A program made the translations under genes and the position numbers. Under the pieces are notes generated by a model. It was not told the DNA's origin. It made no database searches and saw only the letters and a list, made by a program, of their open reading frames with translations. A DNA stretch of 64,000 nucleotides from a virus: UHGV virus genome UHGV-1376965; one strand, given 5' to 3'. This document shows positions 9,431 through 14,116 of this stretch, one piece after another (position 1 is the first letter of the stretch; each line of letters starts with the position of its first letter).

Positions 9431-10021
<591 letters not shown>

Positions 10022-10151
10022 TTAACCGATTCTACGAGTAGTCATTTGTTCATTGAGTAGGAATATTGTTGTCTGGGGGGTAATCAGTGTAGGTGGAATG
10101 AGGGATATGATATGGTTATCACATAATCAGGTTGTTTTGAGTAAAACAATA

Positions 10152-10178
10152 AAACGCCCTTTAATGGGCGTTTTTTTA
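10152..10178. terminator. Bidirectional rho-independent terminator
   Basis: AAAACGCCCTTTAATGGGCGTTTTTTT: GC stem with T-runs on both strands, just downstream of the sim-like operon. Confidence 0.7.
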
Positions 10179-10205
10179 AACTTAAATTGACTATCCTTTC
10201 AAATA

Positions 10206-11000
10206 CTATTTTAATTCTATGTAATTTTTAAATTCTCCCTCATATTTATACATGATGCTATCAAATCCTTCCATTACATCAACGAATTGTTGTGAACATT
10301 CCGGCTTCCAAGGCGTACACTTACGAACCATATCCATTTTTTTCTTATCCTTCGTTGTATCGACTAAGGATAGGTACCCTATAAAATTCATCATCTGAAC
10401 AGGATCTTGATTTGTGAATATATATTTGACGTTTTGCTTAGTAGGCGAAAAAGAATCAAAAGCAGGGAACATATATTCACCAGAAAAAGAGAGTGCAGCA
10501 TCAATGACGTCTGTTGCAGGAGTGCAGTTGCTCAGAATTGGCACTAAGCTAAAATTAGCACCGGAGCACACTGCATATATATCATCCCCTTTTTTTAGTT
10601 TTAACAGAGAGTCTTGCTTTGAATCCAATATTTTCAATTTGATATAATTTAGTGGCGTTGCATTTTCCCCTGGAGTAAATAATTCTACAATTGGTTTATT
10701 ATTCACCATTCTTATGGATTTTATTTCACCATACACAATTGGAATTGTGTTCCATTTTTCCTGAGCAGCAAATTCATTATCTTTAAAATCATTAACCAAC
10801 TCAGATGGCAAATGATAACCAAATTGATTGTTCATTGCTTTCGAAGCAAATCCAGACAAATAGAATGCCCTTACTAAATCATAATCTTTCTTTGAGGTAG
10901 AAAGCCAATCTGGCAATTTATTATCAGCTATCGCGCTTCCAGCAAAAATAGCACAACAAAATGTTATTACATTAAATAATTTCATTTTCCATTCACTCAT
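10206..11000 (-). CDS. Secreted protein, SimC-like (superinfection exclusion position); start may be at 10985
   Basis: N-terminal signal peptide MKLFNVITFCCAIFAGSAIA; AT-rich; position matches P1 sim region as I recall it. Confidence 0.6.
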   Translation of the reverse strand: MSEWKMKLFNVITFCCAIFAGSAIADNKLPDWLSTSKKDYDLVRAFYLSGFASKAMNNQFGYHLPSELVNDFKDNEFAAQEKWNTIPIVYGEIKSIRMVNNKPIVELFTPGENATPLNYIKLKILDSKQDSLLKLKKGDDIYAVCSGANFSLVPILSNCTPATDVIDAALSFSGEYMFPAFDSFSPTKQNVKYIFTNQDPVQMMNFIGYLSLVDTTKDKKKMDMVRKCTPWKPECSQQFVDVMEGFDSIMYKYEGEFKNYIELK

Positions 11001-11310
11001 TAATCGGTTTAAACTCACTAATTAATTCACCAAGACTATTTGGGTATGCTTTATAAATAACATACTCCGAAGAGCCATCTGAATATTGGTAAACCCCATA
11101 ACAGACCAGTTTATTTATTCCTTTCTGAATAGTTTTTTGATTATAAGAATCAACCACTGTTATTCCATATGACGATAATATTTCGTTATATTCTTCAATA
11201 AGAGCTTTTCTTGTTTCCACTGAATTGCAATCTACCTTCGAAAAGTCAACTTCATCAGCAAAAACATTAAATGTTAAAAAGGAAAGCACTAAAAACAAAC
11301 GAATCAGCAT
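10993..11310 (-). CDS. Small secreted protein, SimB-like
   Basis: Signal peptide MLIRLFLVLSFLTFNVFA; AGGAG ribosome-binding site upstream of the second ATG. Confidence 0.55.
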   Translation of the reverse strand: MLIRLFLVLSFLTFNVFADEVDFSKVDCNSVETRKALIEEYNEILSSYGITVVDSYNQKTIQKGINKLVCYGVYQYSDGSSEYVIYKAYPNSLGELISEFKPINE

Positions 11311-11331
11311 AAATCCACTCCTACGCATGGA

Positions 11332-11463
11332 TTAATAGTCATTGATCGCAAAGGCGTAAACGTGCCCAAGGTATTTCGTATAATCGGTACAAATCTCCTT
11401 TACGCTTGATGCTGCATTAACAGTCCCAGCCATAAATAATAACGGTAGTAATAGTTTTCTCAT
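11332..11463 (-). CDS. 43-aa secreted peptide (SimA-like position)
   Basis: MRKLLLPLLFMAGTVNAASSVKEICTDYTKYLGHVYAFAINDY; signal-peptide-like N-terminus; below the ORF-track length cutoff. Confidence 0.4.
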   Translation of the reverse strand: MRKLLLPLLFMAGTVNAASSVKEICTDYTKYLGHVYAFAINDY

Positions 11464-11559
11464 TATAACCTCACCTGCCTTATAACTCATTTAGGGTACA
11501 TATTTTCGCCTTTAAAAAAAAGAGGTTATTAGATCCAACTGTGTATTTATTAAACAAAT

Positions 11560-11576
11560 AATGCTCTAATAAATTT
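11560..11576 (+). promoter_or_regulatory. C1-operator-like 17-mer (AATGCTCTAATAAATTT) upstream of c4-icd-ant
   Basis: 16 of 17 match to ATTGCTCTAATAAATTT, which I recall as the P1 C1 repressor operator consensus. Confidence 0.65.
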
Positions 11577-11762
11577 GTATTTTTAAGTCGCGAATGCTAT
11601 CTTTTCGCATCATATTGACCTTTTAATCGTTCAGGCTTATAGTTCCACCGTCGTAGCAAATTCTGCGACCGGGTTTGACAGCCTGAATGTTAGTGCGGAC
11701 AACCGCAGATTTCCGATATTGCGGTATTTTTGTGTCCGTAAACCGCGTTACGCCCGAATTAT

Positions 11763-11839
11763 GGTGGGGCGTGATGGGGAGGCTTCGGCCTGCTGGTTTC
11801 ACTAACGCCAGTCTGTCAACCCTGTCACGTCCTGCCACC
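11763..11839 (+). ncRNA. c4: c4-like antisense RNA, 77 nt, tRNA-like ends GGTGG...CCACC
   Basis: 77-nt segment with complementary 5' and 3' ends; internal TTCACTAAC and CTGTCAA are complementary to GTTAGTGAGG (icd ribosome-binding site) and TTGACAG just downstream. Confidence 0.6.
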
Positions 11840-11889
11840 TGTTTGACAGCGGGTAGCAGGTTGTTAAACCTGTTAGTGAGGCCGTAACT

Positions 11890-12111
11890 ATGGTTAATGC
11901 CAATCCTTGCACACGCCCAGAATTCATCTGGCGTTTCTATTCCTGTAAAAAACACCACTATCACTTCGTTATCGCAGCAACTGAAGACGAAGCACGCTCT
12001 CAATTGCCTGATGGCCCCTGCATTTTTACTGCCCGTTTTTCTACTAACTCGCGCAATTCACTTAGTTACTGGAACCTCCCCTTCTCTGCCGACGTTCAGG
12101 GGGGTTTATGA
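11890..12111 (+). CDS. icd: Icd-like small protein (interference with cell division)
   Basis: 73-aa ORF directly after c4 whose stop overlaps the ant start; size and position match P1 icd. Confidence 0.65.
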   Translation: MVNANPCTRPEFIWRFYSCKKHHYHFVIAATEDEARSQLPDGPCIFTARFSTNSRNSLSYWNLPFSADVQGGL

Positions 12112-13151
12112 AAAAACCTCTCGTCACCCGTAATGAAATAGCCGAAGCGATCGCTTTGCATACTGCCTGTATGCCGACACGGGAGATCCCCGGCGCAATT
12201 GCTAACTATTTCATGATAACCAGGCGTTTTTATACCCGAACAGATAAGGCTGTGATCAACAGGCTACTGATAGCCGAGATCAGGGATTATTTGATTGAAC
12301 AAGGACGTCTACGTTACGCAACAGTGGCAGCAGAAATAAGAAAGGAGGCACATAGAATGACCGGTAATAATTTGAATGTTGAAAAAACAGCACCTGTTAC
12401 GTCAGCTACGCCAGCACCAGCCGTGAATATCATCCCCAACACCGGAGACACAATCGACAGCCAAACATTGTTGAAGATGGTCAATGAGGCACGCAAGTTA
12501 TGTGGAGAACCAGAGGTTAGAAACAATAAATTCATCGAAAAAATACTCGATGAACTTGAAGGTGAATTTTACACAAAAAGTGCAAAATCCCATGGCACAA
12601 GGGCTGGGCGCTCTTTTGAGGTCATCACCATGACCTACAAACAAGCCCTGCGAGTCGCCGCGCGCGAGTCAAAAGCGGTCCGCCGTTCGCTGATCGACAA
12701 ACTGGAAGAATTGCAGCAGGCAAACTCCCCTGCCCCATCGATCCCCCAAACATTACCAGAAGCTCTACGCCTGGCTGCCGAGTTGGCAGAACAGAAAATG
12801 CAGCTGGAACAACAGCTGGTGGCCGCAGCCCCTAAAGTCGATTTTGCCGACCGGGTATCAGTGGCTAATGGAATCCTGATCGGGAACTTTGCAAAGGTCG
12901 TTGGACTTAAGCAAAACGCCCTTTTCTCATGGTTGCGCCAGAACGGCATTCTCATGGCTTTTGGTGCGCGCAAAAACGTACCGCGCCAGCAGTACATTAA
13001 CGCCGGGTATTTCACGGTGAAAGAAGTGGTGCTGGATGATGAAAATGGCTACCAGATACGGCTGACGCCCCAATTAACGGGTAAAGGCCAGCAGTGGTTA
13101 ACTCGCAAGCTACTTGATGCTGGTTTGTTAAAACCAGTAGCAATAGGTTAA
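12108..13151 (+). CDS. ant1: Antirepressor Ant
   Basis: 347 aa; C-terminal domain (PEALRLAAELAEQK ... GKGQQWL ... LLDAG) is shared with the next gene's C-terminus, the antirepressor-type domain. Confidence 0.8.
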   Translation: MKKPLVTRNEIAEAIALHTACMPTREIPGAIANYFMITRRFYTRTDKAVINRLLIAEIRDYLIEQGRLRYATVAAEIRKEAHRMTGNNLNVEKTAPVTSATPAPAVNIIPNTGDTIDSQTLLKMVNEARKLCGEPEVRNNKFIEKILDELEGEFYTKSAKSHGTRAGRSFEVITMTYKQALRVAARESKAVRRSLIDKLEELQQANSPAPSIPQTLPEALRLAAELAEQKMQLEQQLVAAAPKVDFADRVSVANGILIGNFAKVVGLKQNALFSWLRQNGILMAFGARKNVPRQQYINAGYFTVKEVVLDDENGYQIRLTPQLTGKGQQWLTRKLLDAGLLKPVAIG

Positions 13152-13315: not shown

Positions 13316-14116
13316 ATGCAACAAACATTCAATGCGGATATGAATATATCAAACCTTCATCAAAATGTCGATCCTTCAACCACTCTGCCCGTTATTTGTG
13401 GTGTTGAAATTACGACCGACCGCGCTGGCCGTTACAACCTTAATGCTCTACACAGAGCGAGCGGACTCGGTGCCCATAAAGCGCCAGCTCAATGGCTAAG
13501 AACGCTGTCAGCTAAACAGCTCATCGAAGAGCTTGAAAAAGAAACTATGCAGAATTGCATAGTTTCGTTCGAAGGCCGTGGCGGCGGCACTTTTGCCCAT
13601 GAATTGCTCGCTGTGGAGTACGCAGGCTGGATTTCTCCCGCGTTTCGGCTGAAGGTAAACCAGACATTTATCGACTATCGAACCGGAAGATTACAACCTG
13701 CTATTCCGCAGAGTCTCCCTGAAGCTCTCCGTTTGGCTGCCGACCTGGCAGAGCAAAAGCAACGGCTGGAGCAAAAAATGCTTATGGATGCACCTAAAGT
13801 CGAATTCGCTGAACGCGTTGCTACCGCCAGCGGGGTTCTAATCGGCAACTATGCCAAAGTGCTCGGCCTGGGCCAAAACTATCTCTTCACCTGGTTGCGT
13901 GATAACGGAATTCTGATCGCAACCGGTGAACGCAGGAACGTCCCCAAACAAGAATACATATCCCGTGGGTATTTCACCCTTAAAGAAACCGTGATCGATA
14001 CAAGCAATGGAAGCAGGATTTCTTTCACGACTCGTATAACCGGCAAAGGTCAGCAGTGGCTGATGAAGCGATTGCTTGATGCTGGTGTGCTGGTACCTGT
14101 CGCGGCAACGCGCTAA
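13316..14116 (+). CDS. kilA: KilA (KilA-N domain plus antirepressor-like C-terminal domain)
   Basis: 266 aa; N-terminal KilA-N-like segment (GRYNLNALHRA ... GTFAHELLAVEYAGWISP); C-terminus paralogous to Ant. Confidence 0.75.
   Translation: MQQTFNADMNISNLHQNVDPSTTLPVICGVEITTDRAGRYNLNALHRASGLGAHKAPAQWLRTLSAKQLIEELEKETMQNCIVSFEGRGGGTFAHELLAVEYAGWISPAFRLKVNQTFIDYRTGRLQPAIPQSLPEALRLAADLAEQKQRLEQKMLMDAPKVEFAERVATASGVLIGNYAKVLGLGQNYLFTWLRDNGILIATGERRNVPKQEYISRGYFTLKETVIDTSNGSRISFTTRITGKGQQWLMKRLLDAGVLVPVAATR

Follow-up and report, generated by a model that had tools for sequence, protein, structure and literature searches.

In the stretch of DNA analysed here (64,000 nucleotides of the virus genome UHGV-1376965; referred to as the window), three consecutive ORFs on the minus strand occupy positions 10206-11490 and, read from their short starts, encode proteins of 259, 105, and 43 aa (Table 1). 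Window positions 9900-11800 aligned over their full length with positions 46479-48380 of the phage P1 genome (NC_005856) at 99.4% identity, and the same three ORFs are named simC, simB, and simA in the P1 record. SimB and SimA match their P1 counterparts at 100% identity, and SimC differs by a single substitution (N220K, RefSeq numbering). The neighbours of the sim genes and their orientation are likewise those found in P1. Across the surrounding 7.9 kb we counted 92 differences from reference P1, mostly in sit, pmgB, and pmgC, and the best match to the sim-containing segment was the E. coli plasmid AP024695.1, with 100% identity; the window therefore belongs to a P1-type plasmid prophage that is not reference P1. 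By far the best explanation of the locus is that it represents the sim operon (simA'-simB-simC) of such a prophage. Since the locus is the P1 sim operon itself, the three AT-rich genes for secreted proteins are the already described sim (superimmunity) genes, which makes the finding correct and ordinary.

Table 1. Position of the sim genes and of neighbouring features in the window.
Feature	Position	Strand	Remarks
pmgC	9431-9997		followed by tub, pmgB, and sit (late operon)
LPsit	10029-10047	-	late promoter of the pmgC-tub-pmgB-sit operon; transferred from the P1 annotation by alignment; left cassette boundary
Variable AT-rich cassette	10050-11561	.	between conserved P1-family DNA; unrelated genes in P7-type phages
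Intrinsic terminator hairpin	10151-10174	-	9-bp stem and T-run; 32 nt 3' of the simC stop
simC	10206-10985	-	259-aa precursor of the Sim superinfection-exclusion protein; from ATG (MKLFNV...)
Putative central OB-fold domain of SimC	10515-10814	-	about aa 58-157; PF12869 (tRNA_anti-like); Cys140/Cys154
simB	10993-11310	-	105-aa precursor from MLIRLF...
simA/simB junction	11322-11350	-	homology to full-length simA decays and ends; base-by-base comparison with L003 and L007
simA	11332-11463	-	43-aa ORF from MRKLLL...; signal peptide and 26 aa
PsimA	11528-11554	-	predicted promoter; transferred from the P1 annotation, only predicted there
Oc4	11560-11576		C1 operator; abuts PsimA; transferred from the P1 annotation; right cassette boundary
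a1b1 target of C4 RNA	11637-11689		Rfam RF03163
C4 antisense RNA of immI	11757-11842	+	Rfam RF01695, 68.8 bits; divergent from sim
ant1/2	12108-13151		beyond c4 and icd
kilA	13316-14116		beyond ant1/2

In the RefSeq annotation of P1 the ORFs are slightly longer, with proteins of 264, 111, and 52 aa for SimC, SimB, and SimA; simC there starts 15 nt further upstream, at 11000. Homologues use the short starts, as does GenBank entry M34382, the original record ("sim region ORF 1/ORF 2"), whose ORF 2 of 780 nt corresponds to the 259-codon reading of simC. The short starts are also backed by Shine-Dalgarno-like motifs, namely GGTGAGG before 11463 for simA and AGGAG, 7 nt upstream of the ATG at 11310, for simB. 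The 105-aa reading of SimB gains further support because the annotated ATG at 11328 corresponds to an internal Met codon of full-length SimA, and the annotated start at 11328 (111 aa) is probably not used. The annotated PsimA and PsimB predictions did not come up in our scan for consensus promoters. The only terminator-like site in 9900-11900 is the hairpin downstream of simC. Within this hairpin, at 10173-10177, the window shows a 1-bp deletion and two substitutions relative to reference P1, which overlap the predicted -10 box of P1pmgC in the P1 annotation; the stem in the window is a perfect 9-bp hairpin. On the opposite strand, no ORF overlapping sim is longer than 77 aa and the Rfam scan returned no match inside the cassette, so that a second-strand feature over sim found no support.

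All three N-termini show the layout of a Sec-type signal peptide, in which a basic n-region precedes a hydrophobic core and a cleavage motif of the small-x-small type. Judged by these sequence features, SimC begins with MKLFNVITFCCAIFAGSAIA/DNK... (signal peptide aa 1-20, cleavage motif AIA/D), SimB with MLIRLFLVLSFLTFNVFA/DEV... (VFA/D), and SimA with MRKLLLPLLFMAGTVNA/ASS... (VNA/A), the slash marking the predicted cleavage site. The hydrophobic cores reach 10-residue Kyte-Doolittle means of 2.35-2.67. The calls come from a crude heuristic; of the 444 ORFs with 40 aa or more that the window contains, it scored 20 as positive. SimC, SimB, and a lipoprotein encoded at 34580-35407 are the only positives of at least 100 aa, and for this reason the run of three signal peptides is not a chance pattern; SimA (43 aa) was also positive, and the other 16 positives are ORFs of 40-96 aa that we take to be mostly non-coding. 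The lipobox L-[AS]-[GA]-C is absent at the cleavage site of all three Sim signal peptides. A lipoprotein reading of SimC was dropped on this ground, and the plasmid annotation "OB-fold putative lipoprotein" is unsupported by the sequence.

The GC content of the cassette is 0.333, compared with 0.472 for the window, which places it within the lowest 0.24% of all 1512-bp windows; the eight lowest ones all overlap the cassette. The original prediction, made from the nucleotide sequence, had described three markedly AT-rich genes at 10206-11463 whose products of 259, 105, and 43 aa each begin with a signal peptide, and had noted that their position between the structural operon and the immunity region matches that of P1 sim. 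The sizes and limits of the ORFs proved to be exact, n-region, h-region, and cleavage motif are present in each product, and the genes are flanked by pmgC and LPsit on one side and Oc4 and c4 on the other, as the alignment to P1 bears out.

Homology to phage P7 stops at 10049, at LPsit, and resumes at 11562, at Oc4, and these two sites bound the variable segment exactly. In P1-like phage-plasmids, simABC counts as variable region 4 among eight such regions of low GC content (PMC9603915). We compared the gene arrangements found between c4/icd and pmgC. P1 and the window share the arrangement simA'-simB-simC. A 96-kb contig of GCA_005690115.1 (L006) contains a full-length simA (179 aa) together with simB (108 aa) and simC (264 aa, 39% identity), and a second sequence (L007) carries a gene whose 107-aa product has hydrophobic stretches, along with simB, simC (84%), full-length simA, and a gene for a 158-aa secreted protein. 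In Ro157c2YLVW and JK004, full-length simA and the gene for the 158-aa protein are present without simBC. P7, SJ46, RCS47, and others have the lipoprotein Upf50.5 and the DUF5384 protein Upf50.0 instead, both with annotated signal peptides. At the sim locus, cassettes for exported proteins are thus swapped. Among the plasmids of PLSDB, 505 contain pmgC. Of these, 137 (~27%) also have the simBC module, with identities that never fall below 95%, and nearly all of the listed records label simBC as "hypothetical protein".

Some features of the alternative cassettes deserve mention. In the P7 allele (L002, 1679-2743), Upf50.5 contains a glycine-zipper motif and weakly resembles TraT (PF05818), the surface-exclusion protein of the F plasmid, at a sub-threshold level (E 7e-5; 23.1 bits, cutoff 31). 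Judging from these motifs, the P7 cassette may also have an envelope or exclusion function. The third allele (L003, 2501-3676; L007, 1921-3109; L005, 2501-3550) encodes a full-length SimA-family protein of 179-215 aa and the 158-aa secreted protein. The former scored 26.6 bits against PF14566 (PTPlike_phytase), just under the cutoff of 27 bits, and the latter has a precomputed match to PF27224 (YfjT) in L007.

SimA matches phrog_3933 only at profile positions 1-41 of 213, and tblastn and alignment place it opposite no more than the first ~40 residues of much longer proteins: gp35 of Ro157c2YLVW (215 aa), JK004_14 of a Cronobacter phage (189 aa), and the homologues in L006 (179 aa) and L007 (215 aa). 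The 215-aa homologue of the punavirus vB_EcoM-Ro157c2YLVW is encoded at the same locus. In the alignment, P1 SimA ends at residue 43, where all long homologues go on. The stop codon TAA of simA (11334-11332) lies opposite a GAA (Glu) codon of the intact homologues. Approached from the c4 side, blastn homology to full-length simA extends to 11324 and then ends, and homology to an independent copy of the simBC module starts at 11301. The reading frames of simA and simB are the same, and only TAA-TCC separates simA from the annotated simB ATG at 11328. SimA keeps a single Cys, its partner having been lost. From these comparisons we conclude that simA is, in all likelihood, the truncated 5' remnant of a gene for a 179-215-aa secreted protein that is intact in related phages, and that the stump in P1 was apparently left when recombination joined simBC to the 5' end of this other secreted-protein gene. 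In P1, simA would then be a dead 5' fragment, supplying at most the operon promoter and leader. The remnant nature of simA is the one new detail on this locus.

Alternatively, simA might encode a functional small secreted peptide, 26 aa in its mature form, that serves as an accessory exclusion factor, as suggested by its P1 annotation ("putative superimmunity accessory function"). An intact ORF, RBS, and signal peptide, together with 100% conservation with P1, would be expected of such a gene. We nevertheless regard this as unlikely: the match of SimA is confined to the first 40 residues of the longer family, the single Cys has no partner, a stop codon stands in place of a Glu codon just a few bases short of the recombination joint, and in L007 simBC occurs with no simA-type gene upstream, the place being taken by the 107-aa protein with hydrophobic stretches. 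Of separate note, high-scoring ArgR-box-like sequences lie inside P1 simC and at the simA/simB junction (PMC2409434). They map to 10206-11000 and 11326-11334 in the window, and the latter is the site of the recombination joint.

The two genes downstream of the simA remnant behave as a unit. In P1, L006, and L007, simB adjoins simC, and the two are adjacent in every case where either of these genes occurs; simB and simC are thus co-inherited as one module in each of the three arrangements. Mature SimB has 87 aa, a pI of 4.5, and two Cys residues, C28 and C70, which are invariant across the family alignment. From its co-occurrence with simC in the three loci, SimB is the probable periplasmic partner of SimC. 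The only other occurrence of SimB is as a domain in orf79 of phage D6 (L004, 2348-3244; 298 aa), where a SimB-like domain with 52% identity follows a signal-like N-terminus and is fused to a C-terminal extension of ~160 aa. This ORF lies near the D6 ant and icd genes, and the 5.3-kb stretch examined contains no annotated simC homologue.

Mature SimC comprises 239 aa with a pI of 5.4 and four Cys residues; it has no further hydrophobic segment beyond the signal peptide. The protein matches phrog_14355 with an E-value of 2e-191. An exhaustive HMMER scan of 1.84 billion representatives returned 15 relatives at E ≤ 1e-3, a good number of them fragments, and word-indexed searches returned 4 matches with the protein, 14 with the family alignment, and 5 with the alignment of the OB domain. 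By the measure of these searches, the SimC family is nearly orphan. A search of PDB sequences with the family profile yielded nothing credible (best E 0.16), NCBIfam gave no meaningful matches, and PADLOC-DB contained no match at E ≤ 0.1 for SimA, SimB, SimC, or the proteins of the allelic cassettes.

The central part of SimC (~58-157) aligned with profile positions 52-144 of 146 of Pfam PF12869 at 19.1 bits (E 1e-3), which is under the gathering cutoff of 23.5 bits. Four of eight SimC relatives match PF12869 at E ≤ 0.01 (best E 2e-14), and phmmer joins SimC to the matching relatives with E-values of 9e-9 to 7e-4. AlphaFold2 predictions were of limited help: the single-sequence model (pLDDT 31) was of no use, and the model from a nine-sequence alignment (pLDDT 56.6) is informative on topology only. 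The sub-cutoff Pfam score and the low-confidence model point to an OB-fold domain in SimC that is related to PF12869. Relatives that extend over the respective positions retain two Cys pairs: C140/C154, which belongs to the OB domain, and C223/C230 (CTPWKPEC), which belongs to the C-terminal domain. The even and conserved Cys residues of the SimC and SimB families fit disulfide-bonded periplasmic proteins. From N- to C-terminus, we infer for mature SimC a helix, an OB fold, and a helical domain that contains the CxxxxxxC pair. Secreted OB-fold proteins of PF12869 include PDB 3F1Z, a "putative nucleic acid-binding lipoprotein" of Klebsiella. Besides staying below the cutoff of this family, SimC differs from its members by extra helical regions (aa 21-57 and 158-259) that occur only in a few close SimC relatives.

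The P1 sim locus was treated by Devlin et al. in 1982 and in the genome annotation of Lobocka et al. in 2004. In the 1982 work, exclusion was reportedly seen with multicopy sim clones, which leaves the role of sim at prophage copy number uncertain. The papers of Kliem and Dreiseikelmann from 1989 and of Maillou and Dreiseikelmann from 1990 reportedly found that adsorption is still normal and that phage DNA is kept out of the cytoplasm, that transfection by-passes the block, and that SecA-dependent processing of a precursor yields the protein; the title of the 1990 paper reportedly contains the words "purification of the processed protein". The 20-residue SimC signal peptide read here fits such processing. 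Superinfection exclusion by sim was published by Kliem and Dreiseikelmann (1989; cited in PMC8546580, PMC9177967, and PMC6832061), and the cloned sim gene (ORF 2, which is simC) renders cells refractory to P1 by superinfection exclusion. In PMC2409434, simC is named as the superinfection exclusion gene, with a citation of Maillou and Dreiseikelmann (1990). In a genome-wide CRISPRi screen, simA, simB, and simC were non-essential for lytic growth (PMC10695390). The original prediction had held a block of incoming DNA to be plausible and unproven. This function is indeed the published one for sim, and "unproven" has to be corrected for SimC, and for SimC only, because its superinfection exclusion has been published.

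How could an exported protein exclude P1? SimC would act in the periplasm, together with the small SimB, and would bind a periplasm-exposed part of the P1 ejection machinery; as a result, the channel would fail to reach or traverse the inner membrane. A precedent is provided by T4 Sp (spackle), which inhibits the virion-borne gp5 lysozyme in the periplasm. In P1, Sit is the tape measure protein and carries an SLT domain, and gp5 has no lysozyme domain (PMC9024508). By analogy with Sp and the T4 gp5 lysozyme, Sit is the best candidate target; its SLT domain is the sole peptidoglycan hydrolase domain of the virion, P1 gp5 having none. That SimC specifically targets this tape measure protein and lytic transglycosylase is a tentative proposal, possible rather than probable.

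The OB fold might instead trap incoming phage DNA, single- or double-stranded, in the periplasm. The acidic pI of SimC, and also that of its OB domain (5.8), favours a protein ligand over DNA. Moreover, phage DNA travels inside the tail tube. Given the charge of SimC and the enclosed path of the DNA, we consider such a DNA trap highly improbable.

A different view of the locus would be that the cassette is an envelope "moron" with another natural role, for example in host envelope properties, and that P1 exclusion is a side effect of multicopy over-production. The cassette is AT-rich, horizontally mobile, and non-essential, only ~27% of P1-like plasmids carry simBC, the allelic cassettes encode other exported proteins without known function, and the multicopy requirement reportedly goes back to Devlin in 1982. 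Against these traits stands the fact that even distant relatives, with SimC identities as low as 39%, keep the module at the same site beside the immunity region. According to the literature, the phenotype concerns specifically the entry step after adsorption, and nothing speaks for any alternative function. We judge a moron role improbable, and prefer exclusion by SimC as the reading of the locus.

Combining exclusion by SimC with the history of the cassette, one could envisage a periplasmic SimB-SimC complex as the working exclusion unit, in which the OB fold captures ejected Sit, or the tip of the tube, in the way that T4 Sp blocks the gp5 lysozyme. In the same scheme, simA would be the dead stump of a different secreted-protein gene, and the interval from LPsit to Oc4 would be a dedicated swap site for alternative envelope-exclusion cassettes, i.e., the sim type, a type with full-length SimA and the YfjT-like protein, and the P7 type with a lipoprotein and a DUF5384 protein. 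As a whole, this scheme is speculative and rather doubtful.

Sim can be compared with several known exclusion systems. Sp and Imm of T4 resemble sim in being phage-encoded, in acting at the envelope after adsorption, and in stopping DNA entry of related phages. They share no sequence similarity with SimC in our Pfam, PHROG, and PADLOC searches, and SimC, as predicted from its sequence, would be a soluble exported OB-fold protein. HK97 gp15, P22 SieA, and TP-J34 Ltp are prophage-encoded, non-essential, and block genome entry and not adsorption, as does sim, and both Ltp and gp15 act through the tape measure protein. These three are inner-membrane proteins or lipoproteins, whereas SimC has a cleavable Sec signal peptide and lacks a lipobox; homology of SimC to any of them was not detected. 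The lipoprotein-type exclusion factors T5 Llp, Cor, and TraT carry a lipobox, in contrast to the Sim proteins. T4 superinfection exclusion (Sie) is mentioned in PMC13128918.

As a discovery, the locus carries little weight: sim has been known since 1982, and the reference genome of P1 includes its annotation. Its practical use is for annotators: the module is carried by 137 P1-like plasmids of PLSDB and is mostly given as "hypothetical protein" in the records listed. Anyone studying the mechanism by which Sim keeps DNA out could make use of the shorter start codons, the simA remnant, and the putative OB fold with its Cys pairs. Those who annotate or work on P1 gain incremental refinements: the remnant state of simA, simBC as a module, a putative OB fold with disulfides, the exact limits of the cassette, and a prevalence figure for simBC.

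Two other regions of the window attracted our attention. Positions 1-645 consist of a 300-bp tandem repeat (2.2 copies, 99% identity) that, by coordinate offset from the P1 alignment, falls into the constant part of the tail-fibre gene S; in P1, the repeated elements annotated there (a0, a1, b1, and b2) have different lengths. Further along the window, three tRNA genes (Asn-GTT, Thr-TGT, and one with a Met-CAT anticodon) are located in 33281-33434 and 35435-35510. Between them, at 34580-35407, lies an ORF of 275 aa with a lipoprotein signal (...LCLTG/C), and these tRNA genes and the lipoprotein ORF probably correspond to the P1 tRNA region.
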